A DNA stretch of 64,000 nucleotides from an uncultured Actinomycetota bacterium (GCA_963780675.1 CAWACR010000003.1:1078645-1142644), one strand, 5' to 3'. Positions 320 to 39,289 are shown, counted from the stretch's first letter. Notes: a model not told the origin generated them from the letters alone. Translations and numbers: made by a program.

Positions 320-988
320 GTGCACTTCGTCATCATGGGGTGCGGCCGCGTGGGCGTCACGCTCGCGGAGTCGCTCGAGTCCAACGGACATTCCGTCGCC
401 GTCATCGACTTCAACCCGGACTCGTTCCGTCGCCTCCCGCCCGAGTTCGAGGGCCAGCGCGTCACCGGGATGGGCTTCGACCGCGACTCGCTGCGGCAGG
501 CGGGTATCGAGGACGCCTACGGCTTCGCAGCGGTGTCCAACGGCGACAACTCCAACATCCTGTCGGCGCGCGTCGTGCGGGAGACCTTCGGCGTCGACAA
601 CGTCGTGGCGCGCATCTACGACCCCCGCCGCGCCGAGGTCTACCAGCGGCTGGGGATCACCACTGTCGCGACCGTCCGGTGGACGGCGGACCAGATCCTG
701 CGCCGGATGCTCCCGCTGGGCGCGTCCAGCGAGTACCGGGACGCCTCGGGGATGGTCAGCCTCGTGGAGATGGACCTGAACTCGCGTTGGATCGGGCACT
801 CCGTGCGCAGGATGGAGTCCGACACCGGGGCGCGGGTCGCGTACCTCAGCCGGCTCGGCGAGGGCATGCTCCCCTCCCCCGACGCCGTGCTCCAGGAGAA
901 CGACGTCGTCCACGTCATGGTCCGGACGGACGAGATCACCGCGGTTCAGCGCATCCTCGCGCAGCCGCCCGTGCGGGAGGAGGGCTGA
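320..988 (+). CDS. trkA: TrkA-family potassium uptake regulatory (RCK) protein
   Basis: Starts MHFVIMGCGRVG (Rossmann GxGxxG) at GTG 320; SNGDNSN and VVARIYDP motifs. Confidence 0.93.
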   Translation: MHFVIMGCGRVGVTLAESLESNGHSVAVIDFNPDSFRRLPPEFEGQRVTGMGFDRDSLRQAGIEDAYGFAAVSNGDNSNILSARVVRETFGVDNVVARIYDPRRAEVYQRLGITTVATVRWTADQILRRMLPLGASSEYRDASGMVSLVEMDLNSRWIGHSVRRMESDTGARVAYLSRLGEGMLPSPDAVLQENDVVHVMVRTDEITAVQRILAQPPVREEG

Positions 989-989
989 G

Positions 990-1682
990 ATGCGGGTCGT
1001 CATCGCCGGCGCCGGCAGCGTCGGCCGCTCGATCGCCAGGGAGCTGCTCGGGCACGGTCACCAGGTGGCCCTCCTGGACCGGCAGCCGTCGGCCATGAAG
1101 ATCGCCTCCGTCGCGGACGCCGAGTGGCACCTGGCCGACGCCTGTGAGCCCTCCGCGCTGGTGCAGGCCGGGATCGAGGAGTGCGACGTCGTCGTCGCCG
1201 CGACCGGCGACGACAAGGCCAACCTCGTGGTCTCGCTCCTGGCGAAGACCGAGTTCGCCGTGCCCCGGGTGGTCGCCCGCGTCAACAACCCGAAGAACGA
1301 GTGGATGTTCGACGAGGCCTGGGGGGTCGACGTCCTCGTCTCCACTCCGCGCATCATGACGGCGCTCGTCGAGGAGGCCGTCTCGGTGGGCGACCTCGTC
1401 CGGATCTTCACCTTCCACCAGTCCGGCGCGTCGATGTTCGAGATGACGCTCCCGGAGGACTCCCCCGTGGTCGGCCTCCGGGTCAGTCAGGTGGTCTGGC
1501 CCGGTGACGCCGTGCTCGCGGCGATCATCCGCGGCGACCGTCCGATCCCGCCCAGCCCCGACGACACGCTCGAGGCCGGCGACGAGATCCTCCTCATCGC
1601 GTCGGCGGAGACGCCTGAGGAGCTGGACGAGCTGCAGGACCTGCTGGCTCCCGCACGAGGATCCACGTCAGCCACAGCGTGA
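990..1682 (+). CDS. trkA: TrkA-family potassium uptake regulatory protein, second subunit
   Basis: MRVVIAGAGSVG, ATGDDKANL, VARVNNPKNEW; starts 1 nt after the first trkA. Confidence 0.93.
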   Translation: MRVVIAGAGSVGRSIARELLGHGHQVALLDRQPSAMKIASVADAEWHLADACEPSALVQAGIEECDVVVAATGDDKANLVVSLLAKTEFAVPRVVARVNNPKNEWMFDEAWGVDVLVSTPRIMTALVEEAVSVGDLVRIFTFHQSGASMFEMTLPEDSPVVGLRVSQVVWPGDAVLAAIIRGDRPIPPSPDDTLEAGDEILLIASAETPEELDELQDLLAPARGSTSATA

Positions 1683-2280
1683 GCGCCCAGAGCGGCACAC
1701 CCATCACGAGCCGCGCGCTGCCGAGCCACGCGACCTCGGCGTTGAGGTAGAGCGGGACCTGGACCGCGAGGCGGACCGCGAAGAGGCCGAACCAGAACCA
1801 GGTGGCGATCGTGTACCGCCGCACGTGGCCCGGATCGCTGCGCCAGCCCGTCCCGGTCTGGCGGATGAGCCCGACGACCACCCCGACGGCGGGCCAGCGC
1901 ACGAGGATCGACACCAGCATGCCGACGGCGAAGAGCACGTTCGTCACGAGGCCCCACGCGAAGTAGTCCTCCGCCTCGCCCGACCGCCACGCCCAGAGCA
2001 CCCCGATGAGCACGCCGACCACGCCGCTGAACGCCTGGGTCAGGGGACTCCGGGTCGCCAGGCGGGCGATCACCGCCACGCCGGCCACAGCGAGCGAGGC
2101 CACGAGCGACGGGGTGATCTCGTGGGTCGCGACGTAGACGACCACGAACACCAGACCGGGGGCGATCGACTCCACGAGCCCCCGCCAGCCGCCGATCGCA
2201 TCGGCGACCGAGAAGTCGGCCGCGACCAGCTGGCGCACGCCCCGGGCGCCGGGCTCGGCGCCTGCCTCGGGCGTGCTCAT
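1594..2280 (-). CDS. DUF3159-family membrane protein
   Basis: ATG at 2280 overlaps the upstream stop. AIGGWRGLVES motif and several hydrophobic helices. Usual position next to trkA and dut. Confidence 0.85.
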   Translation of the reverse strand: MSTPEAGAEPGARGVRQLVAADFSVADAIGGWRGLVESIAPGLVFVVVYVATHEITPSLVASLAVAGVAVIARLATRSPLTQAFSGVVGVLIGVLWAWRSGEAEDYFAWGLVTNVLFAVGMLVSILVRWPAVGVVVGLIRQTGTGWRSDPGHVRRYTIATWFWFGLFAVRLAVQVPLYLNAEVAWLGSARLVMGVPLWALTLWLTWILVREPAGPAARPAPQASPPTR

Positions 2281-2675
2281 CACTCGCCCCCGATCGGGGC
2301 CAGCTCGTAGCGAGGGTTGTAGATCGTGTTCCTCCGCGGTCCCGGGGAGACCATGCCGGAGGCGACGACTCGGCGACCCGGCTGGATCCCCGCGACGTCC
2401 CGGCGACCCAGCCACACCAGGTCGACGCTCCCGGAGCCGTCGTAGAGCTCCGCGACGAGAGCCGGGACCTTGCCCTGCGGCCGGTACGTGACGGCCCGGA
2501 GCACTCCCGAGACCTGCGCCCGCGACCGGGGCCGCGTGTTCACGGCGAGGGTGCCACCACGGCGGTGGGCGACGGCCTGCTCGTCGACCGCCTCGATCTC
2601 CGCCCGGGAGGCCACGAGTCGGCCGAAGAAACCCTTCCGCGGGGACGGGGCGCCGGGCCGCGCGGACGTCGTCAC
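2280..2675 (-). CDS. OB-fold nucleic-acid-binding protein
   Basis: GTGA overlap with the DUF3710 stop; ELYDGSGSVDLVWLGRRDVAGIQPG and IYNPRYEL motifs. Confidence 0.85.
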   Translation of the reverse strand: MTTSARPGAPSPRKGFFGRLVASRAEIEAVDEQAVAHRRGGTLAVNTRPRSRAQVSGVLRAVTYRPQGKVPALVAELYDGSGSVDLVWLGRRDVAGIQPGRRVVASGMVSPGPRRNTIYNPRYELAPIGGE

Positions 2676-3406
2676 CGGACCTCCGTGATCTCGGGTCCGC
2701 GCCGGAGGGGGTCTGGCGCCTGGTCTGTTGCCGGGGTGGCGGGAACGGGCGGCCGTCCCGGCAGGTGCAGCGTGAGGAGCTCGCGCGGCGCGCGGGCCTC
2801 CGTGCCACGGACGACGACGACGTCGGCGATGACCGACTCGAGCGCCGCGGCGGCCTCGGGGTCGACGGCGGCCCTGCCTGTCAGCACGGCCCGGAGGAAC
2901 CACCGCGGGCCGTCGATGCCGATGAACCGGGCCGGCCGGTGCCCGGTGCGACCCTCCGGGGTCCGGATCGGGAGCCGGGCGAGCAGCTCCCGGCCGAACG
3001 GACCGGGGACCTCGTCGGCCGTCCCGCCCTGCCGCGTGACCGAGGTCGCGATCTCCGCCCGCAGCTCGTCCCAGATGCCCGTCGTGCGAGGCGCGGCGAA
3101 CGCCTGCACCTGCAGGGCCGAGCCCTCCAGGCCGATGTTGGCCGCAACCACCCGCGACCCGTCCTTCTCCATCTCCATCCGCAGCTGCATCCCCTGGCGA
3201 CCGGGGATGCGCAGCGCGCCGAGGTCGAGCCGGGCACCGAGATCGGGCATGTCCGAGACGTCCCACGGACCACGTGCGGATTCCGGGCTCGCCCCGTCAC
3301 CGGCCGCAGCCGACTCGGTCTGCCCAGGGCCAGTCTCGTCCGCGACCGCCGCGTCCACGCCCACCGCGTCGTCGTCCTTCGCGCGCCGCCTGCCGAAGAT
3401 GCTCAC
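2672..3406 (-). CDS. DUF3710-family protein
   Basis: GPWD, LDLGAL, QAFAAPR, GPFGREL and FIGIDGPRWFLR motifs; lies downstream of dut. Confidence 0.88.
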   Translation of the reverse strand: MSIFGRRRAKDDDAVGVDAAVADETGPGQTESAAAGDGASPESARGPWDVSDMPDLGARLDLGALRIPGRQGMQLRMEMEKDGSRVVAANIGLEGSALQVQAFAAPRTTGIWDELRAEIATSVTRQGGTADEVPGPFGRELLARLPIRTPEGRTGHRPARFIGIDGPRWFLRAVLTGRAAVDPEAAAALESVIADVVVVRGTEARAPRELLTLHLPGRPPVPATPATDQAPDPLRRGPEITEVR

Positions 3407-4893: not shown

Positions 4894-5769
4894 TCATTCG
4901 CCGGGAGCGTCAGCACCCTCCGCTCGGAGGGCCCGGAGAAGCGTGTCCAGCTCGGCCACGACGCCCTCCGACCCCGCCACGGTCATCGCCTCGCCCGCCG
5001 GTCGGCCCCCGAGGCCGACGACGACGCCACCCGCCTCCTCCACGAGCAGTGCCCCCGCCGCGAGGTCCCACGGGTTGAGCCCGCGCTCGTAGTAGCCGTC
5101 GAGCTCACCGGCCGCGATCGCGCAGAGGTCGAGGGACGCGCAACCCGCCCTGCGGATGTCCCGGACCCTCGGCAGGACCTCGGCCACGACGCGGCCCTGG
5201 TCCGCCCGTCGGTCGGCGGTGTAGCCGAAACCCGTCCCGACGAGAGCCAGCGCGAGCGGAACAGCCGGGTTCACGGTCAGCCGCTCGGACGTCCCGAGAC
5301 GGTCGTCCGCGCGCCACGCGCCCAGTCCCCGCGCCGCCCGGTACGTCCGGCCGAGCGCCGGAGCGCTCACGCACCCGGCGACGGGCGCCCACCGCCCCGG
5401 CTCGGTCGGCTGACCCGTGACGACGGCGATGCTGACGGCGTAGGAGGGGATGCCGTAGAGGAAGTTGACGGTGCCGTCGATGGGATCGACCACCCACGTC
5501 AGCCCGCTGGACCCCGGCTCGTACCCGTACTCCTCGCCGAGGACGCCGTCCTGCGGGCGGGCGGCGCGGATCGCCGCGCGGACGAATCGTTCCGAGGCGG
5601 TGTCGAGCTCGGTCACCACGTCGACGGGGCTCGACTTGGTCGCGGCCACCCCGACGCCGGAGCGCCGCCCGCTCAGCACCAGCTCCGCCGCGCCGCGCGC
5701 GGTCCTGACGGCCAGGTCCATGAGCTGCCCGGCCTCGCCGACCGGGACGTCCGTACGTGCGCCGTTCAT
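4894..5769 (-). CDS. suhB: Inositol monophosphatase family protein
   Basis: KSSPVDVVTELD, GEE, WVVDPIDGTVNF, DIRRAG and NPWDLAAG motifs; GGAGG RBS before ATG 5769. Confidence 0.9.
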   Translation of the reverse strand: MNGARTDVPVGEAGQLMDLAVRTARGAAELVLSGRRSGVGVAATKSSPVDVVTELDTASERFVRAAIRAARPQDGVLGEEYGYEPGSSGLTWVVDPIDGTVNFLYGIPSYAVSIAVVTGQPTEPGRWAPVAGCVSAPALGRTYRAARGLGAWRADDRLGTSERLTVNPAVPLALALVGTGFGYTADRRADQGRVVAEVLPRVRDIRRAGCASLDLCAIAAGELDGYYERGLNPWDLAAGALLVEEAGGVVVGLGGRPAGEAMTVAGSEGVVAELDTLLRALRAEGADAPGE

Positions 5770-5999
5770 CTCCACCTCCTGTGGGACTCTTGGGTGTGGG
5801 GCCTCGCCCCGGTGGGCGGGACGCGCCGAGACCGTGCCCGCGCCGCGCGCACCGCACCCGCTCGTGCACCATACGGGCGCCGGGCGAACGCGGGGCGAGC
5901 GCCGCACGAACGCCGAACGACGACGCCACACCGAGCCGGGTGCCGGCACTCGTCGGCCGGGGATGGCACTCTGGCCGCAGGGACTGTGAGGAGGCGGGT

Positions 6000-7076
6000 A
6001 TGGCTGAGCTCGAGCTCGAGGGGCTCCACGCCGACGGCGAGCATCTCGTCCTGGTCGGCCCCGATGGGCAGCGGTTCCGGCTGCTGATAGACGACGCCCT
6101 GCGCGCGGCGGTCCGCCGGGACCGCCCGCAGCTCGAGCACCTGAGGTCCGCCGCGCACCCGCGGCCACGGGACATCCAGAGCAGGATCCGCGCCGGCGAG
6201 TCCGCCGAGGACGTCGCCCGGCTCTCCGACCTCCCGGTCGAGCACGTCCGCAAGTACGAGGGTCCGGTCCTCGCCGAGCGCTCGTGGGCAGCCGAACAGG
6301 CGCGAGCGATCGCGATCGGCCGCGAGAGCGGCGCCCCGCGCCTCGGTGATCTGGTGATCGACCGGCTCGCGGCCAGGGGCGTGCCACCCCAGGACCTCGA
6401 GTGGACCGCGATCCGCCGACCGGGCGAGGCCTGGGAACTGGTCCTCACCTTCACTGCGGGCGGCCGCGAGCGGCAGGCGCGGTGGAGCGTCGACCTCCCC
6501 TCCCGCTCTCTCCACGCGCTCGACGACGAGGGCCGGTGGCTCTCCGAGGTGGAGCTCGGTGGGCCGGCGACCCGCCGGCACCTCACGACGGTGCGCTCGC
6601 GCGTGTACGACGTGGACGTGACCACAGGCACTCCCGTACCCGTTGCGGCCGACGAAGTGGCACCGTCGGGGGCCCTCGCGTCGGAGGCCCCGTCGTCGGA
6701 GGCTCCGTCGTCGTCGTCGGACGCCACGACCACGACCGACTCGGCCTCCCTCACCGACGACCTCCTCGACGAGCTGCGGGCCTCCCGAGGCGTGCGGCAC
6801 GAGATCCCGCGGCTCGAGGACGAGGCCTTCGACGTCGACCAGCCCCCTGCGGCCCACCCGCCCGCCTCGGCCCCCGAGGAGGCGCGAGACGCGGCCGTGC
6901 TCCCGCTCCCGGTGGGCGCCTGGGCCACGGTCTCCACCGAGCCCGACGGGGCCGGGGCGGAGTCGGAGGCGGCGGATCGGCCGGCGCCGGATGTCGCCCG
7001 CAAGCCCCGGAGCCGCTCCCGCCGTACCAGCGTCCCCAGCTGGGACGAGATCGTCTTCGGCGCCAAGCCCGAGTAG
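6000..7076 (+). CDS. sepH: Septation protein SepH (DUF3071)
   Basis: GAGGAGG RBS; PRDIQSRIRAG HTH, YEGPVLAER and C-terminal SVPSWDEIVFG motifs. Confidence 0.9.
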   Translation: MAELELEGLHADGEHLVLVGPDGQRFRLLIDDALRAAVRRDRPQLEHLRSAAHPRPRDIQSRIRAGESAEDVARLSDLPVEHVRKYEGPVLAERSWAAEQARAIAIGRESGAPRLGDLVIDRLAARGVPPQDLEWTAIRRPGEAWELVLTFTAGGRERQARWSVDLPSRSLHALDDEGRWLSEVELGGPATRRHLTTVRSRVYDVDVTTGTPVPVAADEVAPSGALASEAPSSEAPSSSSDATTTTDSASLTDDLLDELRASRGVRHEIPRLEDEAFDVDQPPAAHPPASAPEEARDAAVLPLPVGAWATVSTEPDGAGAESEAADRPAPDVARKPRSRSRRTSVPSWDEIVFGAKPE

Positions 7077-27765: not shown

Positions 27766-28015
27766 CCCGAGCAACGGCGTGGCGCACGCCGCGACTCGCG
27801 TGTCGAACATTCCGCAGGGCTATCACCCACGACCCAGCCGTCGGGCCCGTCAGGTGCAGTTGCCTATGATCGCCTCCGTCGACTGCGCTGGTACTCGCTC
27901 GCCCTTCGGATCCGCTGGGCCACGTGCGTTCACCGCCCCCTGCCTCGTCGAAGCCTCGGGGTGGTGGGCGGGATTCAGGTCGGCGTGGGATGTCGAACGA
28001 GACGGGAGTCAACGC

Positions 28016-28852
28016 GTGACCCTCTTGCAGGCGATCCTCCTCGGCATCGTCGAGGGCGTCACCGAGTTCCTTCCGGTCTCCAGCACGGGGCACCTGACGA
28101 TCACCGAGCAGCTGATGGGCCTACCGATCGACGACCCGGGCGTGACGGCGTTCACCGCCGTCATCCAGATCGGCGCCATCCTGGCCGCGATGCTCTACTT
28201 CCGGGCCGACATCATCCGCCTCGCGCTCGCCTGGTTCCGTGGCCTGCGCGGCCGCGAGCACCGCGCGGACCCGGACTACCGCATGGCCTGGTACGTCATC
28301 ATCGGATCCCTGCCCATCGCCGTCGTCGGCCTGGCCGCGAAGGACCTCATCACCGGGCCTCTGCGCAGCCTGTGGGTCGTGGTGGCAGCGCTGGTCGGGT
28401 GGAGCTTCGTCATGGTGGCGGCCGAGCGAGTCGGCCGACGGACCCGCGGCGAGCAGAACGTCAACCTGAGGGACGCGATCGTCATCGGCACGATCCAGGT
28501 CTTCTCCCTGGTCCCGGGCGTATCCCGGTCTGGGGCCACGATCAGCGCGGGCCTGATGCTCGACCTCGACCGGGTCGCGGCCACCCGGCTCTCGTTCTTC
28601 CTCGGCATACCGGCACTGGTCGCCGCCGGCGCCTACGAGAGCGCCACGCAGGCCGGCGCGATCAGCAGCTCCGTGGGCTGGGGCCCCACCCTGGTCGCCA
28701 CGATCACGAGCTTCGTCGTCGCCTACGCCGCGATCGCCTGGCTCCTTCGCCTCGTCGCCCACCACCCGATCTCGGTGTTCGTCCCCTACCGCCTCGCCCT
28801 CGCCGCGCTCATCGCCGTCCTGCTGACAACCGGAACCCTCACCGCCGTGTGA
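28016..28852 (+). CDS. uppP: Undecaprenyl-diphosphate phosphatase
   Basis: LGIVEGVTEFLPVSSTGHL and PGVSRSGATI motifs. Confidence 0.96.
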   Translation: MTLLQAILLGIVEGVTEFLPVSSTGHLTITEQLMGLPIDDPGVTAFTAVIQIGAILAAMLYFRADIIRLALAWFRGLRGREHRADPDYRMAWYVIIGSLPIAVVGLAAKDLITGPLRSLWVVVAALVGWSFVMVAAERVGRRTRGEQNVNLRDAIVIGTIQVFSLVPGVSRSGATISAGLMLDLDRVAATRLSFFLGIPALVAAGAYESATQAGAISSSVGWGPTLVATITSFVVAYAAIAWLLRLVAHHPISVFVPYRLALAALIAVLLTTGTLTAV

Positions 28853-29115: not shown

Positions 29116-31839
29116 CTACGACGGGGCGCCGGGAGCGGGTGGCACGCGACGGTGGGTGGGCAGGACGGTAGCGGTGGTGAAGCGTGCTGCGCGGCGGTGG
29201 ATGCGGCGCCCGGGCCGGCGGGGTCGGGCCGTCGTCGGGACGGTCGGGGCGGCTGCGAGGGTGCGGTAGAACCACCACTTGGTGGCTTCGATGAGGACGA
29301 GGTAGACCGCGACCATCAGCGCGAGAGCGGCGAAGAACTGGGCGGGCAGCGGGGTGAAGCCCAGGGCCGGTCCCAGAGGTGTCTGTGGGAGAACCGCGCC
29401 GACCAGGGCGACGCCGATCGCGGAGATGGCCAGCGGGCGGCTGGGGTTGCTGCGGAAGAAGGGGATCCGCCGGGTCCGGATGGCGAAGATCACCAGGGTC
29501 TGGGTGGCGAGCGACTCCACGAACCAGCCGGAACGGAACAGCTCGGGGCCGGCGTGGAAGACGCCGAGCATCACGGCGAAGGTGGCGAAGTCGAACAGCG
29601 AGCTGATCGGCCCGAAGACCAGCATGAATCGGCGGATGAAGTGGATGTCCCACTGGGACGGGCGAGCGAGCTGCTCGGCGTCGACGTGGTCGGTGGGAAT
29701 CGTGAGCTGGCTGGAGTCGTAGAGCAGGTTGTTCAGCAGGATCTGCGAGGGCAGCATCGGCAGGAATGTCAGGAACGCCGACGCCGCGGCGGCGCTGAAC
29801 ATGTTGCCGAAGTTGCTCGAGGTCCCCATGAGGACGTACTTGATCGTGTTGGCGAAGATGCGCCGACCTTCCACGACGCCGTCGGCGAGGACGTCGAGGT
29901 CCTTCTCCAGCAGCAGGACGTCGGCCGCGTCCTTGGCCACGTCGCTGGCTGACTCCACGGATATCCCGACGTCGGCGGCGTGCAACGCAAGAGCGTCGTT
30001 GACGCCATCGCCCAGGAACGCGACGTCGACCCCGGTGCGCCGCTGGGTGCGCACGATGAGCGCCTTGTCCTCGGGGCTGACGCGCGCGAAGACCGTCGAC
30101 GCGGCGACCTTCTCGGCGAGCTGCTGCTCATCCAGGCCCTCGAGGTCGGCCCCCGTGCACGCCTTCCCGGCAGGTAGGCCGAGGTCGGCGCAGACACGCA
30201 GGGCGACTGTGGCGTTGTCTCCCGTCACGATCTTGACGGACACCCCCAGGCCGGCGAGCCGCTCGATCGCACCCCGAGCGCTGGGCTTGGGCGGGTCGAG
30301 GAAGACCAGCAGCCCCCGAAGACTCAGCCCGGACTCCGCGGCCGGCGAGAGGGTGAGCAGACCCGGCGCCGGTCGGGAGGCCACCGCCACTACCCGGTTC
30401 CCGGCGGCGAACTCCGCCTCCAACGCGGCCCGCACCGCTCCCGGGACCTCGACACACCGCTCGAGCACCGACTCCGGAGCCCCCTTCGTGACAAGCAGGC
30501 GGCCCACCCCCGGCCCGTCCTCGCCGACCCCGACCTCGACGCCGACGTCGACGTCGACAAGGACGGAGACCATCCGCCGCTCGTGGTCGAACGGCAACGT
30601 CGCGACCCGGCGAACGCCCCGCACGAAGGCCCCATGCGCCGCGGCCTCCGGCGACTCCCACAGGGCGACGTCGAGGGCGTTGCCGCCCGCGACCTGACCG
30701 TCCTCGACGACCGCCTCGGAACACACGAGCCCGAGCCGCACGGGCTCGCCGGCGCCATTCCCGTCCCGGCCGAGCGAGCGCGCGAATCGGATGCTCCCCT
30801 CGGTCAACGTGCCCGTCTTGTCGGTGAACAACACCTCGACGTCACCGAGATCCTCGATGCATACCAGGCGCGTGACCAGCACCCTGCGCTTGGCGAGCTC
30901 TCGCGAACCGGTCGCCAAGCTGGCGGAGACGACCGCGGGCAGCAGCTGCGGGGAGATCCCGACAGCGATCGCCAACGAGAACAGCAACGCGTCGAGCACG
31001 GGCCGGTGCAGCACGACATTGATCACGAAGATGCCGATCGTCAGGGCGCCGGCCACCTCCACGAGAAGCAACGAGAACTTGCGCAGCCCGACCTGGAACT
31101 CGGTCTCCGGGTGACGCTCACCCAGGCCCAAGGCGATCCGACCGAACGTCGCCCGGCCCGCGGTCGCGACGACCACGCCTCGCCCAGACCCGGCATGGAC
31201 CACCGTGCCCATCAACGCGCACGAGCCCAGGTCCGCCAGCGCCGCGCGGTCGGCTACCGGCTCGACCTGCTTCTCCCGCGGCAGCGACTCCCCGGTCAAC
31301 AGGGACTCCTCACACTCCAGCCCCGTGCACTCCAGCAGCCTCATGTCAGCGGGAACCACCTCCCCGAGCTGCAGGTCCACCACGTCGCCCGGGACCAGCC
31401 CGGTCACATCGAGGGACACCGGATGCCCCCCACGGATGACCACACAGCGGTGGCGGACCTGGGAATGCAGGCCCTCGGCCGTCTTCTCGGCCCGGTACTC
31501 GTTCCATACGTCCAGGCCCACGGACGCCGCCAGGATGACCCCGATGATCAGCGCGTCGGTCTGCTGACCAAGGAAGAACGCCGCCACCGCCGTGACGCCC
31601 AGCAGCACCAACAACGGGGAACGGAACTGACGCAGCACGACCGGCAGCAGCCGGGCCCTGTGCGAACGCACCGCGTTCGGCCCGCCCGCCGCGAGACGAC
31701 GGCCCGCCTCCACCGCGCTCAACCCACCCGGACCCGACCCCAAACCCGCGAACACGCCCTCGGCCCCCATCGCCGCGGCCACCCGCACGTCCAACCACGG
31801 GACACCGGGCACCGGAACGCGCACAGCCGGCGGACCCAC
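29116..31839 (-). CDS. mgtA: Mg2+-translocating P-type ATPase (P3B, MgtA-like)
   Basis: TGES, DKTGTLT, TGDN, GDGVND, SSNFGNMFS, NNLLYD and GWFVESLATQ motifs. TM4 reads GISPQLLP. Start uncertain. Confidence 0.9.
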   Translation of the reverse strand: MGPPAVRVPVPGVPWLDVRVAAAMGAEGVFAGLGSGPGGLSAVEAGRRLAAGGPNAVRSHRARLLPVVLRQFRSPLLVLLGVTAVAAFFLGQQTDALIIGVILAASVGLDVWNEYRAEKTAEGLHSQVRHRCVVIRGGHPVSLDVTGLVPGDVVDLQLGEVVPADMRLLECTGLECEESLLTGESLPREKQVEPVADRAALADLGSCALMGTVVHAGSGRGVVVATAGRATFGRIALGLGERHPETEFQVGLRKFSLLLVEVAGALTIGIFVINVVLHRPVLDALLFSLAIAVGISPQLLPAVVSASLATGSRELAKRRVLVTRLVCIEDLGDVEVLFTDKTGTLTEGSIRFARSLGRDGNGAGEPVRLGLVCSEAVVEDGQVAGGNALDVALWESPEAAAHGAFVRGVRRVATLPFDHERRMVSVLVDVDVGVEVGVGEDGPGVGRLLVTKGAPESVLERCVEVPGAVRAALEAEFAAGNRVVAVASRPAPGLLTLSPAAESGLSLRGLLVFLDPPKPSARGAIERLAGLGVSVKIVTGDNATVALRVCADLGLPAGKACTGADLEGLDEQQLAEKVAASTVFARVSPEDKALIVRTQRRTGVDVAFLGDGVNDALALHAADVGISVESASDVAKDAADVLLLEKDLDVLADGVVEGRRIFANTIKYVLMGTSSNFGNMFSAAAASAFLTFLPMLPSQILLNNLLYDSSQLTIPTDHVDAEQLARPSQWDIHFIRRFMLVFGPISSLFDFATFAVMLGVFHAGPELFRSGWFVESLATQTLVIFAIRTRRIPFFRSNPSRPLAISAIGVALVGAVLPQTPLGPALGFTPLPAQFFAALALMVAVYLVLIEATKWWFYRTLAAAPTVPTTARPRRPGRRIHRRAARFTTATVLPTHRRVPPAPGAPS

Positions 31840-32009
31840 CTCGCCATCGTGTCACCGCAACTGCGGGGACGCACGGTCCTGCACCCACGGAACGCGAGCT
31901 CACCCTGCTGAGCACGATCGACGGGTGCCGCGGAACCCAGCAGCTGTTCCACGCCGCGCTGTCGGGCACGGCGACCGACAACGACAGCCGGCCCGCCCGC
32001 CACCAGATG

Positions 32010-32543
32010 TCAGCCGGGGCCCGCGCTCAGTCGCTCGAGGAGAGGCTTGTGCTCGGGGAAGGCTGCCTCGAGCCGGTCGAGGTCGCCCCGGGCGGGGACG
32101 AACGAGTCGGCCGGGTCGTAGCCGGGGCTGAGACTGCAGGTGACGAGCGCGTAGGTGGTCCGTAGGAGCTCGGCGCCGAACCATGTCGAGTGCGGCGCGA
32201 CGCCGTGCCACACCTCGCCGCGAGACGGCGCGGACCCGAGGGTGATCGCGCTGTAGCCGTCCGTCTCGGAGAAGACGTGGAGGCGAATCGGCCCTCCGGT
32301 GTGGAAGAACCACAGCTCGTCCTGGTGCAGCATGTGCAGGCGCAGCACCTGGCCCGCGTCGAGCAGGTACCAGTTGGAGGAGTACAGCGACCGGCTACCT
32401 CCGAACCGTGCGGGCAGCGCCGAGCCGTCCACCCGCTCGTCGGAGCCCATAGCAGGCGCGAACCAGCCACCCACGGGTACGGGGGTCAGGCCGAGTCGCT
32501 CGACCCACCGACGGGCCGTCGGCCGCCTCGTCCGCTCAGTCAT
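32010..32543 (-). CDS. DUF985 / Cupin_5-family cupin (divergent)
   Basis: LGLTPVPVGGWF, SSNWYLL, LHMLHQDELWFFHTGGP, WFGAEL and LVTCSLSPGYD; ATG overlaps the PAS gene end. Confidence 0.82.
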   Translation of the reverse strand: MTERTRRPTARRWVERLGLTPVPVGGWFAPAMGSDERVDGSALPARFGGSRSLYSSNWYLLDAGQVLRLHMLHQDELWFFHTGGPIRLHVFSETDGYSAITLGSAPSRGEVWHGVAPHSTWFGAELLRTTYALVTCSLSPGYDPADSFVPARGDLDRLEAAFPEHKPLLERLSAGPG

Positions 32544-32952
32544 CGACGGGCTTGCGCAGCGAGAAGCACACGGTGATGCCGATGATCTGGCCCGTGCACG
32601 GGTCGCGCAGCAGACCCTTCTGCGTGACGATCTCCACATTGACCATGCCACCGCGACTGGTCGGGACGGCGATGGTCTCGTGGAAGTTGAGCAGGGGCTT
32701 GCCGCTGGCCATGACCTGCTTGTCGTGCGCGACGTGGGCGGCGCGGCTGTCCTCCTGCCCGATCAGGTCGGCCTTGCTCACCCCGACGAGGTCCGCGAAG
32801 TTCTGGTTGACCCACAAGATCACCGAGTTGACGTCCTTGACCACCCAGTAGACGCCGTCCTGGCGATCGAGGACGTCCGCGATGCTCAGGGGCGGCTCGG
32901 TGGGGAGCACCGGGTTCGACGGGGCGTGTGCGGCATCCGCGGGCGCGCTCAC
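32536..32952 (-). CDS. Stand-alone PAS-fold protein (138 aa)
   Basis: YWVVKDVNSVILWVNQNFADLVG...LIGQED ... DKQVMASGKP ... KGLLRD..GQIIGI is a PAS_4 pattern with no output domain; GTGA overlap with the GMC stop. Confidence 0.82.
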   Translation of the reverse strand: MSAPADAAHAPSNPVLPTEPPLSIADVLDRQDGVYWVVKDVNSVILWVNQNFADLVGVSKADLIGQEDSRAAHVAHDKQVMASGKPLLNFHETIAVPTSRGGMVNVEIVTQKGLLRDPCTGQIIGITVCFSLRKPVDD

Positions 32953-34700
32953 CGCCGGGCCTCGTCGGTGTCCGCCGTCGAGGTGAGGGACTCCGCGAGG
33001 TCCTGCGCCAACGCGACCATGGTCATCGTGGGGTTCCACGAACCGCCCGTCGGCCACAGGCCACCGCCGGTGACGTAGACGTTCTCGACCCCGCGCAGCC
33101 GGTAGTCCAACCCGACGGGCGCGTCGTCGTCCTCGCCGATGTGCAGGGTGGAGCCCTCGTGGACGAGGCCGGGAACTCGCCGCTCGGGTGGGCGCGGGCG
33201 CTCGGCGCCCCACGTGCCGGTGTCCGGGTCACCGTGCCAGTACTCCACCCGGTCGGCGCCGGCCGGGGAGAACACGCACTCCATCATCTGGAAAGTCGCC
33301 TCGTCCATCGTGTCCCAGGTCTCGCGATCGACATCGTTGGCCAGCACCTGCAACGTCACGTTCGTCGTCGGATCCGTCCCGCCGTCGAGGGCGAGGTAGT
33401 TCTCGGCGTTCTTCTCGTCTATCTCGCCGAGCACGGCGCACACGAACACGAGGTGATCGGGTGAGGAGACCAGCTGCGCCAACGACGCCGTGGCGACGAC
33501 GTCGGGGGCGTACCGCTCGGCCTTCTGCGCGTCGGCCTGCGGGTCGCGGTCCGAGAGGACGGACAGCTGCACGTGGTACTGCATCCCGGCCGGGCTCTTG
33601 CCTGCCAGGTAGATGGCCGCCAGCTCGAGCTCGGCCAGCTTCGAGGCGAAGTCGAAGTCGGCGCGCGGCACCCGGGCGACGACGGCGGTGATGAAATGCG
33701 CGGTGAAACGCGCCCCGGTGTGGCGAACCTGGGGGAAGGAGTTCAGGACCAGGGTGGTCGGCGGGAGCGTGCCCATCGCAAGGATGAGGTTTGCATCGCC
33801 GATGGGGACGACGCCGCGGCTCGTCTCTAGCGCCGTCGCCCGCCCGCCCTGCTGAAGGACCCGGTTGACCACGCACTCCGTCACGATCTGCAGCGCGCTC
33901 CCCGTGCCGGCGGCGGCGGCCCCAGCCTGCTGGTCCACGAGGCCCAGGAGGACGGCAGGAGTCGAGAACTTGGCGAAGTCGATTCCGGCGTCGGCGCCGG
34001 CCGCGGCCGCGAGCGGTGCGGGCAGCCACCGGGTGGCCGAGTCGATGCGGCCCAGGCCGGCGGCGAGGAGGGCCTGCAGCCCCTTCTGCAGCCGCCCGTA
34101 CACCGGACGGTGCCCTGCCACGAGGTCACGCTGGGACGCCGTGAGGTTCTTGTCGATCCGATCAGCGGGAATGACGTTGAGGAGTGCCTCCGCCGAGGCG
34201 AAGTGGCGCTGCGCGGCGGCGATCGTGGCAGCGGGCCACTCGCGCATCTCGTCCTCGAGCGGACGAGGGCACCACGCGCTCCACATGATGCTGCGGCCGC
34301 CGAAGAACGGGACCATGCCGTGCTGCCACTGGATGTTCCCGGCCGGCTGATCGTGAGTCGCCGCGGACAGGGTCCACGGGAAGGTCTCGGAGAGCCCGCC
34401 CAGGGTCTGGCGGTAGGGAAGCGGCAGGTTCTGGAAGTGCTCCGGAAGGAAGTACGGCCCGCGCTCGATCACCAGGATGCGGGCGTGGGGGTCCCGTGCG
34501 AGGGCCCGTTCGGCGAAGGCGAAGCCGCAGAAGCCGCTACCGACCACGATGTGGTCGAACTGCTGATCCTCGCGGGCCTCTTTCCATCCCGCCTGGGACA
34601 GGAAGAAGACGTGGTCCATCACCTTCTGCGGCGTCGGCGCCTGTGGTCCGGGCGTCGGATACCCGTAGTTGAAGTTGGGTGTGGAGGAGACAGCGCTCAC
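32949..34700 (-). CDS. GMC-family FAD oxidoreductase (pyranose-oxidase-like)
   Basis: IVVGSGFCG, IERG, GGRSIMWSAWCPR, VHEGST and GSWNPT (His/Asn pair). An alternative in-frame ATG at 34913 has a GAGGTG RBS. Confidence 0.88.
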   Translation of the reverse strand: MSAVSSTPNFNYGYPTPGPQAPTPQKVMDHVFFLSQAGWKEAREDQQFDHIVVGSGFCGFAFAERALARDPHARILVIERGPYFLPEHFQNLPLPYRQTLGGLSETFPWTLSAATHDQPAGNIQWQHGMVPFFGGRSIMWSAWCPRPLEDEMREWPAATIAAAQRHFASAEALLNVIPADRIDKNLTASQRDLVAGHRPVYGRLQKGLQALLAAGLGRIDSATRWLPAPLAAAAGADAGIDFAKFSTPAVLLGLVDQQAGAAAAGTGSALQIVTECVVNRVLQQGGRATALETSRGVVPIGDANLILAMGTLPPTTLVLNSFPQVRHTGARFTAHFITAVVARVPRADFDFASKLAELELAAIYLAGKSPAGMQYHVQLSVLSDRDPQADAQKAERYAPDVVATASLAQLVSSPDHLVFVCAVLGEIDEKNAENYLALDGGTDPTTNVTLQVLANDVDRETWDTMDEATFQMMECVFSPAGADRVEYWHGDPDTGTWGAERPRPPERRVPGLVHEGSTLHIGEDDDAPVGLDYRLRGVENVYVTGGGLWPTGGSWNPTMTMVALAQDLAESLTSTADTDEARR

Positions 34701-34945
34701 GTCGGGACCCCCTGACGTCACGCCGGACGTCGACGCCGGTCCGTCGTCGGACCAGGCCGTCCACGCGCGGCTTCTTGTCCGGCACCGGGCAGGGGCCGGA
34801 TTGCGGGGGGCGGTCTTCTCAGCGTCGACGCCTGACCCACGGTCGAGCGGCCCGGCGTCGAACTCTCCCCCCGGCGAGTACTGCCGACCCCGCTCGGGGA
34901 TCGACGCCGGCATCGGCGTCACCTCGGTTGGAGTAGCAGGGCCTC

Positions 34946-34995
34946 ATCCTGGTGTCGCGGAAGCGGGCCTGTCAATGAATCATTCCGAGAATGAT
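34946..34995 (-). promoter_or_regulatory. Putative housekeeping-sigma promoter of the GMC operon with an adjacent palindrome
   Basis: Minus-strand TTGACA (34975-34970), 18-nt spacer, CAGGAT; perfect ATCATTC-cga-GAATGAT at 34979-34995. Confidence 0.55.
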
Positions 34996-35129
34996 CCGTC
35001 GCGTTGCAGCATTCGACGGCGCCTCCGTCTGGGTCCACCGGCACATCCTGCAGCTGCCAGGTGCCCGAAGCTCGACGAGGGCGGACTGCCGCGCCCCGGG
35101 TGGGCCACCCCGCTCTCGGAACCTCACGT

Positions 35130-35290
35130 CAGCCCGAGGTCGCCTTCGCCGTCTCGTCCCTGACAGTGCTGCGTATGCTCCCGGTCGCCGTGATCGCCCT
35201 CACGGTCCTACTCAGCGTGCTCGCCCACGGGCTCAGCGCCGACGTCCTCGCCACCCGCTACGGCCGCTGGGTCACCGCACCGACCCGACG
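35130..35290 (+). pseudogene. Collapsed remnant of a CPA1-type cation:proton antiporter C-terminus
   Basis: FAVSSLTVLRMLPVA joined directly to VIALTVLLSVLAHGLSA..LATRYGRW. From recall, the GWFGPRG helix normally lies between these two segments. Confidence 0.55.
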
Positions 35291-35342
35291 CCAACGGAAT
35301 CGCCCCTGGTCGGGGGCCGTGCCCTCGACCACGGGCGGATTC

Positions 35343-35507
35343 TCAACGGCGGTCGCGCCGGTCGTCGCGGCGGTCGTCACGCCGGTCGTGACGCCGGTCG
35401 ACGCCGTGGGCCACGACGGCGGCCGTCCCGACGACAGCGGCGGTTCGCGCCACGGGTGCGGGGCCGATCACGCCCGGTCCCCCGATCCTCCTGCGTGCCA
35501 GTGGCAT
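35343..35507 (-). CDS. Small 54-aa protein with DRRx repeats
   Basis: MPLARRRIGGPGVIGPAPVARTAAVVGTAAVVAHGVDRRHDRRDDRRDDRRDRR; AAGGAGG RBS; starts 1 nt after the DUF6325 stop. Confidence 0.7.
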   Translation of the reverse strand: MPLARRRIGGPGVIGPAPVARTAAVVGTAAVVAHGVDRRHDRRDDRRDDRRDRR

Positions 35508-35508
35508 C

Positions 35509-36006
35509 TCAGGCCTCCTTCTCCGTCGCGGCGGCCTCGTCGGCCGCCTCCTCGATCTCCTCGATCTCTTCGTCCAGGTCCGCCTCGATCGCGGCCAGGA
35601 TGGCCTGCACCGGGATCCGCCCGTTGGCCACCAGCTGGCCACCCGCCCGGCGCACGGCCGAGGCGAACGGCGCCGCCCACGTGTTCTCCCAGATCAGAGC
35701 CGCGGCGGTGCTACCCGGCTCGACGGCCGCGGCCAGGGACTCGACGTCCTCGGCGCTCAACAGCATCGCCAGCTCCGTCTCGTAGGAACGCAGCCCCCCG
35801 ATCTCGGCCTCCTCCAGGTCGGACAACTCGAAGGCCTCGATCGCCCCGTCCTCGTCCTTGCGCAGGATCAGCAGGTCGAGGACGCGGATAATCCCGCGGT
35901 CCACGAGGTCATTCAGTGCCGGCGCGATCTCGCCCTTGAACTGGCTGCCCGGGAACTCCACCACGAGCCAGTCCACCGGACCCAGCTCGTCGATCTCCTC
36001 ACTCAT
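35509..36006 (-). CDS. DUF6325-family protein
   Basis: LGPVDWLVVEFPG, GIIRVLDL, PGSTAAALIWENTWAAPF and GRIP motifs; AAGGA RBS. Confidence 0.85.
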   Translation of the reverse strand: MSEEIDELGPVDWLVVEFPGSQFKGEIAPALNDLVDRGIIRVLDLLILRKDEDGAIEAFELSDLEEAEIGGLRSYETELAMLLSAEDVESLAAAVEPGSTAAALIWENTWAAPFASAVRRAGGQLVANGRIPVQAILAAIEADLDEEIEEIEEAADEAAATEKEA

Positions 36007-36263
36007 GCGCACGTCCTTCGTCGTCACTGCTTCTGGCTGCGACCGAACCCCGGTCGGGCCAGTCCTCCACCGATCGCGGCGCGCTCGGCAGACGCTCCCT
36101 GACGCTAGACCCCTAGCCGCGCTCTCGGATCGGGACCATTGCACCCTTTCTCCTCCCGGAAGTACCCGTGCGATCGCCTGTGGAGGGTCCGACAGTCGCG
36201 CCGCCGGGATATCTCGGTCCGAGATGGCACGGGCGCCGCACCGGCGCAGGCGATACTCGCGGG

Positions 36264-37574
36264 GTGACTTCTGTTGACCTGGGGATGCCCCGCCCGGGTG
36301 GTGCGTTCCCGTCCCGCCCCGAAGGCGTCGTGGGGGCGCCGTCGTCGTTCCATGTGCTGGCCAAGCCGACGGGAGCGATCTGCAACCTGGACTGCTCGTA
36401 CTGCTTCTTCCTGTCCAAGGAGGAGCTCTACCCGGGCAGCCGGTTCCGGATGCACGACGACGTCCTGACGCAGTACCTGCGCCAGCTGCTCGAGGCCCAG
36501 CGGGGGCCGGAGGTGACCGTGTCCTGGCAGGGCGGGGAGCCGACCCTGATGGGGCTGGACTTCTTCCGCCGGGCGATCGAGAAGGTGGAGGCCCTCGCGG
36601 GGCCGGGCCGGCGGGTCGAGCACACGATGCAGACGAACGGCACCCTGATCGACGACGAGTGGGCGAAGGTCCTGGCCGCCCACGACGTGCTGGTCGGGAT
36701 CTCGATCGACGGCCCCCGGGCGCTGCACGACGCCTACCGGGTGGACAAGGGCGGCAAACCCACCTACGACCGCGTGATCCGCGGACTGGAGAAGCTGAAG
36801 GCGCACGGCGTGCGGTGGAACGTCCTGACCACGGTCCACCACGCGAACGAGGAGCACGGCCCGGAGGTCTACCGGTTCCTGCGCGACGATCTGGGGGCGG
36901 AGTTCATCCAGTTCATCCCGATCGTCGAGCGACCCTCACCGGGGGGGATCCCGACCGGCGACGAGGTCACGGACCGGTCCGTCTCCCCCGGCGGGTACGG
37001 CCGGTTCCTCGTGGCGGTGTTCGAGGAGTGGGTGCGCCGCGACGTCGGAACCGTGTTCGTGCAGATGTTCGACTCGACGCTGGCGAGTTTCCTCGGGGTG
37101 CCCGGCTCGCTGTGCGTGCACACCGAGACGTGCGGCACCGCCCTGGCGCTCGAGCACAACGGGGACCTGTACTCCTGCGACCACTTCGTCGAACCCGACT
37201 ACCTGCTGGGGAACATCCGCGAGCGGCACATGCTCGAGATGGTCGCCTCCCCCCAGCAGCGGGCGTTCGGGGACGCCAAGCGTGACGCCCTGCCCGCGTA
37301 CTGCCGCTCCTGCGACGTGCGGTTCGCCTGCCACGGCGGCTGCCCCAAGGACCGGTTCACCACCACCCCCGACGGCGAGCCCGGCCTGCACTACCTCTGC
37401 CCCTCCTACCAGCAGTTCTTCCGCCACATCGACGCACCGATGCGGTTCATGAGCGCCGCCCTGCGCTCCGGCCGCGACGCCGACGACGTCATGGGCTGGT
37501 ACCACCGCCGCGACACCCGGGCCTCGGCGGGGCGGGACGGCGGGCGGCCCGAGCGCGAGGGGCCGACGACGTGA
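36264..37574 (+). CDS. Anaerobic sulfatase maturase (radical SAM/SPASM)
   Basis: FHVLAKPTGAICNLDCSYCF, WQGGEPTL, QTNG, YSCDHFV and CRSC..RFACHGGCPK. Start is GTG 36264 or ATG 36285. Confidence 0.93.
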   Translation: MTSVDLGMPRPGGAFPSRPEGVVGAPSSFHVLAKPTGAICNLDCSYCFFLSKEELYPGSRFRMHDDVLTQYLRQLLEAQRGPEVTVSWQGGEPTLMGLDFFRRAIEKVEALAGPGRRVEHTMQTNGTLIDDEWAKVLAAHDVLVGISIDGPRALHDAYRVDKGGKPTYDRVIRGLEKLKAHGVRWNVLTTVHHANEEHGPEVYRFLRDDLGAEFIQFIPIVERPSPGGIPTGDEVTDRSVSPGGYGRFLVAVFEEWVRRDVGTVFVQMFDSTLASFLGVPGSLCVHTETCGTALALEHNGDLYSCDHFVEPDYLLGNIRERHMLEMVASPQQRAFGDAKRDALPAYCRSCDVRFACHGGCPKDRFTTTPDGEPGLHYLCPSYQQFFRHIDAPMRFMSAALRSGRDADDVMGWYHRRDTRASAGRDGGRPEREGPTT

Positions 37575-39289
37575 CCGGGCCGGCCGAACCCACTGACGGC
37601 CGCGGGCGAGGCTCCGGCCTCGGGGCCTCCCTGCGGTCCTCCTTCTCGCGCAAGACGGCGGGGAAGGACCTCAGCGCCGGGCTCGTGCTCGGCCTGGAGA
37701 GCGTGCCCGACGGGCTCGCGGCGGGGCTGCTCGCCGGGGTGAACCCGGTCGCGGGCCTGTACGGCTACCTGGTCGGGACGGTCGCGGGCGCGTTCGCGAC
37801 GTCCTCGGTATTCATGTCCGTGCAGGCCACCGGGGCGATGGCGGTGATCATCGCCGACGTCCCGCAGGTGCGTGAAGGGCCCGACGCCGCCACCGCCCTG
37901 TTCACGTTGGCCGTCCTGACCGGGGTCGTGATGCTCCTCGTGGGAGTGCTCCGGCTCGGCTCGCTCGTGCGGTTCGTGCCGAACGCGGTGCTGACCGGGT
38001 TCGTCAACGCCGTCGCCGTCAACATCGTCCTGGGCCAGCTGACCAACTTCACCGGGTACGCGGGGCAGGGCCCGAACCGGATCGCGCGAACGGTCGACAC
38101 GTTCCTCCACATCACCTCCTTCCACTGGCAGACCGTGGCCGTGGGAGCCCTGACCGTCGTCCTCATCGTGGTCCTCGAACGCACCCGCCTCGGCCCCCTC
38201 GGCCTCGTCGCCGCCATCGTCGTGGCCTCCGCCGTCGTTCCTCTGCTGGGCTGGGACAGCGTCGCCCAGCTCAACGACGTCGCGGACATCCCCGGCGGGC
38301 TGCCCACGCCCGTCCTGCCCTCGCTGTCACTCGCCCTGACCCTGCTGGTGCCCGCCGTGTCGCTGGCCTTCGTCGGGCTCGTCCAGGGCGCGGCCATCAG
38401 CCAGTCGGTGCCCAACCCGGACGGGACCTACCCGGACGCCTCCGGCGACTTCCGCGGCCAGGGGGTCGCGAACATCGCCGCCGGGATCTTCCAGGGCATG
38501 CCGGTCGGCGGGTCGATGTCCGCCACCAGCCTGGTCACCACCGCCGGTGCCCGCACCCGACTGGCGAACATCAGCGCGGCCGCCGTCATGGCCGTCGTCA
38601 TCCTGCTGTTCGGTGACGTGGCGGGCGCGATCGCGATGCCTGCGCTCGCGGGCCTGCTCATGGTCATCGGCGTGCGCACGTTCAGGCCCGACCGGGTGAA
38701 GATGGTCTGGCGCACCGGGGGGACCCAGGCGATCGTCATGGTCACCACGTTCGTCCTGACGATCGTGATCCCGCTGCAGTACGCCGTGCTCATCGGGGTC
38801 GCGATGTCGGTGATCCTCTTCGTCGCCCACCAGTCCAACAAGGTCACCGTGATCCGGTGGGTGTTCCCCGCCGGCTCCCCCTTCCCCCACGAGGAGCCGC
38901 CACCCGCCGAGCTGCCGCCCGGCGAGGTCGTCGTCCTGATGGTCTACGGGAGCGTGTTCTTCGCTTCCGCCCAGGTGGTCGAGGCGCAGCTGCCCGCCGT
39001 CACGCCCGCCTCGACGGGCTCCGTCGTCGTGCTGCGCCTGCGCGGCAAGGAGGACCTCGGCTCGACCTTCATCCGCGTCGTCACCCGCTACGCCGACTCC
39101 TTGAACGCCGTCGGCAGCCACCTCGTCCTGGCCGGCGTCGGGGATCACGTCCTGCGCCAGCTCACCGCCACCGGAACCCTCGACGCACTCGGCCCGGACA
39201 ACGTCTTCCCCGCGACTCAGGCGCTCGGCACCTCCGTGACAGCAGCGCTCACTCGCGCGAACGAACTGCTCACCGCACCACCCCGCTGA
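37571..39289 (+). CDS. SulP-family anion permease with STAS domain
   Basis: DLSAGL..G..SVPDGLA.GLLAGVNPVAGLY, GMPVGGSMSAT and YGSVFFASA motifs; GTGA overlap with anSME. Confidence 0.92.
   Translation: MTGPAEPTDGRGRGSGLGASLRSSFSRKTAGKDLSAGLVLGLESVPDGLAAGLLAGVNPVAGLYGYLVGTVAGAFATSSVFMSVQATGAMAVIIADVPQVREGPDAATALFTLAVLTGVVMLLVGVLRLGSLVRFVPNAVLTGFVNAVAVNIVLGQLTNFTGYAGQGPNRIARTVDTFLHITSFHWQTVAVGALTVVLIVVLERTRLGPLGLVAAIVVASAVVPLLGWDSVAQLNDVADIPGGLPTPVLPSLSLALTLLVPAVSLAFVGLVQGAAISQSVPNPDGTYPDASGDFRGQGVANIAAGIFQGMPVGGSMSATSLVTTAGARTRLANISAAAVMAVVILLFGDVAGAIAMPALAGLLMVIGVRTFRPDRVKMVWRTGGTQAIVMVTTFVLTIVIPLQYAVLIGVAMSVILFVAHQSNKVTVIRWVFPAGSPFPHEEPPPAELPPGEVVVLMVYGSVFFASAQVVEAQLPAVTPASTGSVVVLRLRGKEDLGSTFIRVVTRYADSLNAVGSHLVLAGVGDHVLRQLTATGTLDALGPDNVFPATQALGTSVTAALTRANELLTAPPR

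Follow-up and report, generated by a model that had tools for sequence, protein, structure and literature searches.

Positions 32,010–34,700 of a 64,000-nucleotide stretch of DNA from an uncultured Actinomycetota bacterium (GCA_963780675.1, CAWACR010000003.1:1078645–1142644; this whole stretch is called the window) carry three genes that were previously noticed from the sequence alone as a candidate module for the synthesis and sensing of a small-molecule signal. They encode a flavoenzyme of the GMC superfamily, a protein that consists of a single PAS domain and a cupin of the DUF985 family (Cupin_5 in Pfam). We find that this trio recurs in the same order across bacterial phyla, and that its PAS and cupin parts are one polypeptide in most of the lineages that carry it. 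The reading that we favour, with a probability of roughly 0.5, is that the genes encode a compact enzyme module, cytoplasmic and spread by horizontal transfer, that pairs a GMC flavoenzyme with an accessory PAS-cupin protein.

The sequence bears out the original description of three intact genes with overlapping stop and start codons (Table 1). Read directly from the minus strand, the GMC stop codon overlaps the PAS start codon within GTGA, and the PAS stop codon overlaps the cupin start codon within ATGACTGA. The assignment of the three products to the GMC, PAS and DUF985 cupin families is likewise correct according to a Pfam scan and matches to Protein Data Bank (PDB) sequences. For the GMC gene, the upstream GTG start is favoured over an alternative ATG at 34619 because the 28 residues that it adds are conserved in homologues from other phyla. 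This Pro-rich N-terminal segment (roughly 28 residues, positions 34617–34700) is conserved across phyla in GMCs with and without the two partner genes alike, and several database annotations of GMC genes begin past it. A promoter and terminator scan of positions 31700–35600 returned no promoter-like site and two terminator-like sites, each within the GMC gene on the opposite strand, which is close to the chance level.

Table 1 Features of the GMC, PAS and cupin locus (positions counted from the first nucleotide of the window)
Feature	Positions	Strand	Details
GMC-superfamily flavoenzyme gene, 583 amino acids	32949..34700	minus	start GTG at 34700; stop TGA at 32951-32949
PAS gene, 138 amino acids	32536..32952	minus	start GTG at 32952-32950; stop TGA at 32538-32536
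DUF985/Cupin_5 gene, 177 amino acids	32010..32543	minus	start ATG at 32543-32541
GTGA, GMC stop overlapping PAS start	32949..32952	minus	read directly from the sequence
ATGACTGA, PAS stop overlapping cupin start	32536..32543	minus	read directly from the sequence
AGGGGG, Shine-Dalgarno-like, 7 nucleotides 5′ of the GMC GTG start	34708..34713	minus	sequence reading

We used a profile built from 17 stand-alone PAS homologues to search contigs representing one genome per species, in a scan limited by patterns that yielded 39 loci, and compared the three window proteins with these loci by tblastn. GMC, PAS and cupin genes lie in the same order at 38 of the 39 loci, with identities to the window proteins of 50–77%, 56–82% and 38–62%, respectively. 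The trios span at least seven bacterial lineages, with representatives in Actinomycetota, Alpha-, Beta- and Gammaproteobacteria, Bacteroidota, Cyanobacteriota, Myxococcota and Acidobacteriota. Named hosts include Arthrobacter, Sinomonas, Paenarthrobacter, Curtobacterium, Chitinibacter, Caballeronia, Pseudoduganella, Flavobacterium and Hymenobacter, and further examples reside in metagenome-assembled genomes (MAGs) labelled Acidobacteriaceae, Alphaproteobacteria, Zoogloeaceae, Burkholderiaceae, Cytophagales, cyanobacterium, Myxococcota and Endozoicomonadaceae. The only exception, in Cystobacter fuscus (L042, positions 5076–6654), has no GMC gene nearby and retains a truncated PAS-cupin frame with the last 48 or so PAS residues, which overlaps a weak IS200-like open reading frame (ORF); it looks like a decayed copy. 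At a locus in Arthrobacter sp. Hiyo8 (L021), the PAS match ends at residue 116 and the cupin match comes in two pieces in different frames, breaks that could be frameshifts or sequencing errors. The occurrence of the trio elsewhere, on which the original prediction had staked its case, is thus found across phyla. This constancy of gene order, together with the overlapping start and stop codons and with the PAS-cupin, GMC-PAS and three-way fusions described below, leaves next to no credence for the explanation that three genes of unrelated function have become neighbours by accident.

No other gene accompanies the trio across phyla when the flanking ORFs of the 39 loci and the window are clustered all against all; only two small clusters span two phylum groups. 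The distribution of the trio is also patchy. A sample of 400 genomes from the window's class yielded no copy of the GMC outside the window's own genome, and 400 sampled Burkholderiales likewise held none other than that of the window's own genome. The PAS was not found in three genomes of the same genus (86–89% complete), and these genomes hold the window's flanking genes at 72–80% DNA identity and nothing substantial from positions 32010–34700. This pattern fits horizontal acquisition of the trio. A collection of phages gave no match to the PAS.

The strongest indication of how the three proteins belong together comes from gene fusions. PAS and cupin share one open frame at 21 of the 39 loci (20 that were flagged, plus L023, where the PAS and cupin matches end at the same stop codon), and 59 database proteins of 279–314 amino acids combine an N-terminal PAS with Cupin_5. 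The 18 split loci comprise 17 from actinobacteria and one from a cyanobacterial MAG. Residues 15–138 of the window PAS align with residues 1–126 of one fused protein (P0031) at 72% identity, and residues 4–173 of the window cupin align with its residues 137–306 at 45% identity. Because these two matches tile the fused protein end to end, the window PAS and cupin genes appear to be a fused protein cut in its interdomain linker with translational coupling kept, and the ATGACTGA overlap would mark the fission point, within the linker of the fused homologues. On a tree of the GMC proteins, the actinobacterial split forms fall in one clade of 22 with support of 100, among fused lineages, and we take the split form to have probably arisen by fission, on a quick version of the tree that is rooted at its midpoint.

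Other fusions join the remaining neighbours. A Myxococcota MAG (L027, positions 5032–6894) encodes GMC_oxred_C, PAS_4 and Cupin_5 in a single frame of 620 amino acids, with the N-terminal part of the GMC in another frame, a split that may reflect a frameshift or an assembly error; a run of Asp-Cys repeats is inserted within the GMC part of this locus. A further protein (P0093) is an in-frame fragment of a GMC-PAS fusion. The PAS therefore sits between GMC and cupin in gene order as well as in every variant of GMC, PAS and cupin fusion, and fuses to either neighbour. Such an arrangement is a classical sign that separate polypeptides work as one unit, and it suggests that the three proteins would do so here, presumably as a complex. 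It is very likely that the PAS is an integral part of a PAS-cupin unit associated with the GMC. Thus, the original description of a PAS protein without an output domain is true of the window gene, but the gene represents a PAS-cupin fusion in its split form. Similarly, the concern that the PAS might be a truncation of a larger regulator proves half right, in that the PAS is a piece of a larger protein but this larger protein is not a regulator. Judged from these sequences, the PAS appears to be a detached domain or subunit of an enzyme unit rather than a free-standing signal receptor. One 518-residue protein (P0090) carries an RNase T2 domain ahead of PAS and cupin, with an N terminus resembling a signal peptide on visual inspection; it may be a eukaryotic gene or an artefact of gene modelling.

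The window GMC scores 41 bits against GMC_oxred_C (PF05199; cut-off 24.6). Its score against the N-terminal GMC domain (PF00732) is 14.1 bits, for which the cut-off is 23, and the homologue P0093 reaches 25.1 bits. The FAD-binding Rossmann start (FAD, flavin adenine dinucleotide) is of the GxGxxG type and is conserved in homologues along with the Glu that follows it. Among PDB sequences, the window protein matches 8qve with an E value of 7e-10, and a profile of the family matches only 8qve, a bacterial pyranose oxidase (6e-11), and 7qf8, a glycoside 3-oxidase (1e-6). In keeping with the catalytic His/Asn pair that had been proposed for the enzyme, the His and Asn that occupy the catalytic positions of 8qve lie opposite H514 and N556 in the alignment, and both of these window residues are invariant in 23 homologues. 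It had also been proposed that GGRSIMW stands in place of the flavinylated motif. This segment indeed aligns with GGxxxHW of 8qve and 7qf8, in which the His is the flavinylation site of pyranose oxidases; the window protein has Met at this position, and the consensus of the family profile has Leu aligned to the His of both structures. Because the flavinylation His is replaced, FAD is probably bound non-covalently.

The known enzymes nearest to the window GMC are therefore the bacterial pyranose oxidases and the (C-)glycoside 3-oxidases of the GMC superfamily (PMC10646112, PMC10807413, PMC9659204, PMC11650716). The window protein shares with them the FAD Rossmann start, a GG...W..CP.P segment and the C-terminal His/Asn pair, but it differs in having Met or Leu in place of the flavinylation His and in its conserved Pro-rich N-terminal extension. 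Glycoside 3-oxidases have deglycosidases as partners, whereas the partner of the window GMC is a PAS-cupin. A score of 20.4 bits against the NCBIfam model pyranose_ox (TIGR02462), for which the cut-off is 544.9, indicates that the window GMC is not an equivalog, and all NCBIfam matches of the trio are far below threshold. In a protein language-model Atlas, pyranose-oxidase clusters are the nearest named ones beyond the GMC's own family, which serves as a lead only. On this evidence, the window GMC is related only distantly to the branch of pyranose oxidases and glycoside 3-oxidases and is not a member of it. Its own family is large and carries generic names only, with 489 proteins at E ≤ 1e-5 among 8,000 candidates scored. 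Its members include proteins of Pseudomonas sp. ZL2, Cupriavidus necator, Polyangium and Pyxidicoccus, none of which is a genus represented in the pattern-limited set of PAS-seeded loci. A secreted or periplasmic enzyme with a hitch-hiking subunit was considered and rejected; inspection of the GMC N terminus by eye, without a predictor, gave no resemblance to a signal peptide.

The window PAS scores slightly below the cut-off for PAS_4 (PF08448; 22.7 versus 23.1 bits), and most of its close homologues carry a precomputed PF08448 annotation. Its best matches among PDB sequences are three entries of the Vibrio quorum receptor VqmA (E value of 0.0014), in which residues 30–69 of the window protein align with residues 14–54 of VqmA, and a PAS profile also finds VqmA entries only (5e-4). 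A model of the window PAS by itself, built from 17 sequences, was poor (predicted local distance difference test score (pLDDT) of 54.9). A fused PAS-cupin homologue that is 72% identical to the window protein over the PAS was therefore modelled with AlphaFold2 (AF2) in its place, with a pLDDT of 93.3 and a predicted template modelling score of 0.79. The PAS half of this model is a five-stranded antiparallel sheet with flanking helices that resembles many solved PAS domains (Z scores of 11–13.7). The PAS of VqmA ranks first, with VIA Z scores of 13.5–13.7, a root-mean-square deviation of 2.2–2.5 over 110–112 aligned residues and the highest identity, 22–23%. Sequence and structure comparison thus uphold the likeness to VqmA that had been recognized at the outset.

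How much this likeness says about function is a separate matter, and it bears on the original proposal that the oxidase and the cupin make or degrade a furanone- or pyrazinone-like signal, which the VqmA-like PAS binds, sequesters or relays. In its favour, VqmA is the sole source of PDB sequence matches to the PAS and its top-ranked structural neighbour. Furthermore, K23 and Y36 of VqmA, which have been mutated as residues of its binding site for the pyrazine autoinducer DPO (3,5-dimethylpyrazin-2-ol), align with K39 and F52 of the window PAS, and both are invariant among PAS homologues. However, the sequence match spans only about 40 residues, confined to strands one and two and the helix after them, and the structural ranking is in effect a tie with the PAS domains of CitA and ThkA, which lie within one Z unit of VqmA (Z scores of 13.1–13.3, 11–13% identity). 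DPO binding in VqmA is carried by F67, F99 and K101, all of which fall outside the aligned stretch. A full-library search with the PAS profile found 1,614 proteins at E ≤ 1e-3, of which 11 reach E ≤ 1e-30, and beyond the PAS family itself the best sequence matches, closer than VqmA, are repeats in proteins of more than 1,000 amino acids with several matched PAS stretches; the single one of these that was scanned (P0096) is a multi-PAS sensor histidine kinase. Among solved structures VqmA comes closest, but it is not the nearest relative overall.

The architecture of the PAS proteins also argues against a relay of the VqmA kind. VqmA of Vibrio cholerae (6ugl, 6kju, 6ide) is the closest solved PAS by sequence, but unlike VqmA the 138-residue window PAS contains no DNA-binding domain of the helix-turn-helix type, and the homologues listed for it either stand alone or are fused to Cupin_5 or GMC, which are enzyme-type domains. 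A lone PAS that binds, sequesters or relays a signal, as was proposed, is difficult to reconcile with a domain that most lineages join to the cupin and some to the GMC, with no output domain anywhere, an arrangement that makes a VqmA-style relay impossible. We therefore consider the signal proposal decidedly unlikely, and the same holds for its fuller form, in which the cassette is a mobile signal-processing device that makes or destroys a diffusible heterocycle held in the VqmA-like pocket of the PAS.

The remaining support for a signal comes from the cupin. The window cupin scores 105 bits against Cupin_5 (cut-off 25), and its PDB matches are the DUF985 structures 3loi (2.8e-17), 3m3i, 1yud and 1znp. 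The cupin half of the fused-homologue model is a DUF985 jelly roll, with Z scores of 24.1 to 1yud and 20.5 to yeast YML079w (1xe8). YML079w encodes Cff1p, which is reported to be required for production of 4-hydroxy-5-methylfuran-3(2H)-one (MHF), a mimic of autoinducer-2 (AI-2), with E44 required for MHF production and H96 named as the putative catalytic His (PMC8092285, PMC13267403). As first described, the HPEGG motif of the family is changed to VPVGG in the window cupin, which aligns with HPEGG of the Leishmania DUF985 structure 3m3i. A profile alignment to 1xe7 identifies E44 as the Glu directly before the conserved Gly-Gly of this motif. The corresponding residue is Val in the window cupin and Ile (29), Val (19) or Leu (11) in the 59 fused homologues. 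Thus, the window cupin shares with Cff1p its Pfam family, its fold and the H96 His, but differs from it in the replacement of E44 by Val, in an attached or partnered PAS and in a linked GMC gene. The analogy with Cff1 and MHF that underlies the signal proposal is weakened accordingly, as the required Glu is absent from the window protein and from 59 of 59 fused homologues. In contrast, the H96 position is His in the window cupin and in all 59, and an Asp-Glu pair five residues beyond it is invariant in the 59. By their sequences, the PAS-linked cupins therefore form a distinct DUF985 subfamily that has lost the Glu essential in Cff1 and kept a conserved polar cluster.

These observations can be combined into a model of the module that we favour, a GMC flavoenzyme with an accessory PAS-cupin protein. 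The GMC would use non-covalent FAD to oxidize a hydroxyl to a carbonyl on an alcohol substrate, probably a sugar-like one. Part of the GMC family would have gained the PAS-DUF985 protein, which in actinobacteria, the window included, would then have come apart into two genes coupled in translation. The PAS-cupin may bind near the GMC, presumably in a physical complex, and either convert its product or tune the enzyme. The PAS would most likely supply ligand binding, regulation or assembly, and the cupin would most likely bind or convert the carbonyl product, perhaps by isomerization, tautomerization or dehydration. That the cupin performs a second chemical step is a tentative proposal to which we give somewhat less than even odds, and because the Glu that is catalytic in Cff1 is missing, the mechanism would be unlike that of Cff1. 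A complex prediction for the GMC with a natural PAS-cupin fusion scored 0.00 in two runs made without controls, and is evidence neither way.

The dependence between the partners runs in one direction. A GMC-seeded scan of metagenome contigs gave 80 loci, 41 of which contain a complete GMC and at least 1,000 nucleotides downstream. PAS and cupin accompany the GMC at nine of these 41 loci, and at two more there is only a cupin, upstream. The other 30 lack both PAS and cupin within roughly 3 kilobases, and at two such loci that were read ORF by ORF (L050 and L061) the neighbours are unrelated. Two records in a plasmid collection likewise carry a solo GMC at 55% identity, and the annotated features around the GMC on a Mesorhizobium plasmid include no PAS or cupin genes. 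Set beside the 38 trios at 39 PAS-seeded loci, these numbers demonstrate that the PAS-cupin nearly always occurs with a GMC, whereas the GMC often occurs with no PAS-cupin nearby.

Several findings, this one included, weigh against the model outlined above. In a tree of 76 GMCs, built by a quick maximum-likelihood search, the trio and solo forms interleave, with eight changes of state by parsimony and at least four forced by the starred branches. The GMC would therefore work without a partner, and the PAS-cupin may be regulatory rather than catalytic. The likeness of the GMC to characterized oxidases is remote, as three short segments and no more align when the family profile is used. The cupin lacks the sole residue shown experimentally to be necessary in its only studied relative, the Glu of Cff1, and may not be an enzyme at all. 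Furthermore, a Pfam scan of 68 flanking ORFs from 17 of the 39 loci revealed no common transporter, regulator or pathway gene; the lack of a linked regulator or exporter also counts against a signal.

Some of these points are what would be expected if the PAS-cupin were a non-catalytic subunit that senses a ligand, oxygen or redox state and switches the GMC by direct contact, possibly through a cofactor on a conserved helix of the PAS. An optional regulator would leave the GMC alone at many loci, as is observed, and the cupin lacks the Glu that is catalytic in Cff1; the PAS is drawn from the sensory PAS_4 pool, and GMC-PAS fusions exist. Also consistent with sensing is the fact that the long helix before the third strand of the PAS carries a near-invariant His, Val and Asp (57, 59 and 58 of the 59 fused homologues, respectively), with a second His in 49 of the 59. 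In heme-PAS proteins, the proximal His resides in the long helix before the third strand. However, no tool picked up a cofactor motif, and the invariant His at the H96 position and Asp-Glu pair of the cupin look more like an active site than a scaffold. To our knowledge, PAS-cupin regulators of flavoenzymes are without precedent. On balance we regard a purely regulatory PAS-cupin as unlikely, though not far-fetched.

The same conserved His residues in PAS and cupin, along with the location of the PAS between GMC and cupin in every fusion variant, would suit a purely conjectural scheme in which the GMC is a dehydrogenase that passes electrons through a heme or flavin PAS to a metal centre in the cupin, which would act as an oxygenase or reductase. 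We give this scheme very little credence. The titles of the matched DUF985 structures name no metal, and the sole ligand that they mention is guanosine diphosphate (3loi); the classical two-His-one-carboxylate cupin motif offers nothing in its favour.

A parallel to the enzyme module that we favour is the fungal cortalcerone pathway, in which pyranose 2-oxidase produces a keto-sugar and aldos-2-ulose dehydratase/isomerase, an enzyme containing cupin domains, turns it into a small heterocycle. The likeness is one of logic; the fungal cupin belongs to another family, no PAS takes part there and the system is eukaryotic and secreted or periplasmic. Each of the three protein families is known, but their combination in one module is new as far as literature searches show. 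We found no paper on a GMC with PAS-Cupin_5 or on the PAS-Cupin_5 architecture, although supplementary homologue lists of the Cff1 papers might include the subfamily.

DUF985 proteins are widespread and have a single functional lead, Cff1 and MHF, and the GMC family of the window has hundreds of members, none of which is characterized. With the module, each of these two families gains a defined partner and a context in which it can be tested. It also represents an unusual use of a PAS, in which a sensory-type domain is a built-in part of a metabolic enzyme unit, fused to an oxidase or a cupin, and the conservation of this PAS (56–82% identity across phyla) is suggestive of a specific ligand. 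An antimicrobial heterocycle or a signal as the product would make the cassette a portable trait that is ecologically interesting; if the reaction were a catabolic step, it would constitute a new branch of oxidative sugar or glycoside metabolism. Should the signal-device reading hold, soil and freshwater bacteria would be trading the production or quenching of a cross-species signal by horizontal transfer.

Some individual loci add to this picture. At a metagenome contig (L079, positions 380–3234), a Polyketide_cyc2/SRPBCC gene is followed by a Cupin_5 gene of the same subfamily and then by a GMC, with no PAS. In this single case a ligand-binding fold takes the place of the PAS, which fits a ligand-handling role for that position. 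The solo GMC on the plasmid of Mesorhizobium sp. L-2-11 (L125, positions 138767–140515 of the record, 55% identity) lies near purH, a gene resembling SAICAR synthase, a phosphoribosylanthranilate isomerase gene, a gene of the beta-ribofuranosylaminobenzene-phosphate-synthase family and a gene for a Rieske protein, a cluster with an odd ribosyl or nucleotide flavour.

Downstream of the trio in the window lie genes for a P-type cation ATPase (29116–31839, minus strand) and BacA/UppP (27779–28852), neither of which is linked to the trio in other genomes. Upstream lies a DUF6325 gene (35509–36144, minus strand), from which a radical-SAM/SPASM gene (36168–37574) diverges. The start of the next gene, of the SulP/STAS sulfate-permease family (37571–39289), overlaps the stop of the radical-SAM/SPASM gene, and the two may form a maturase-transporter unit.

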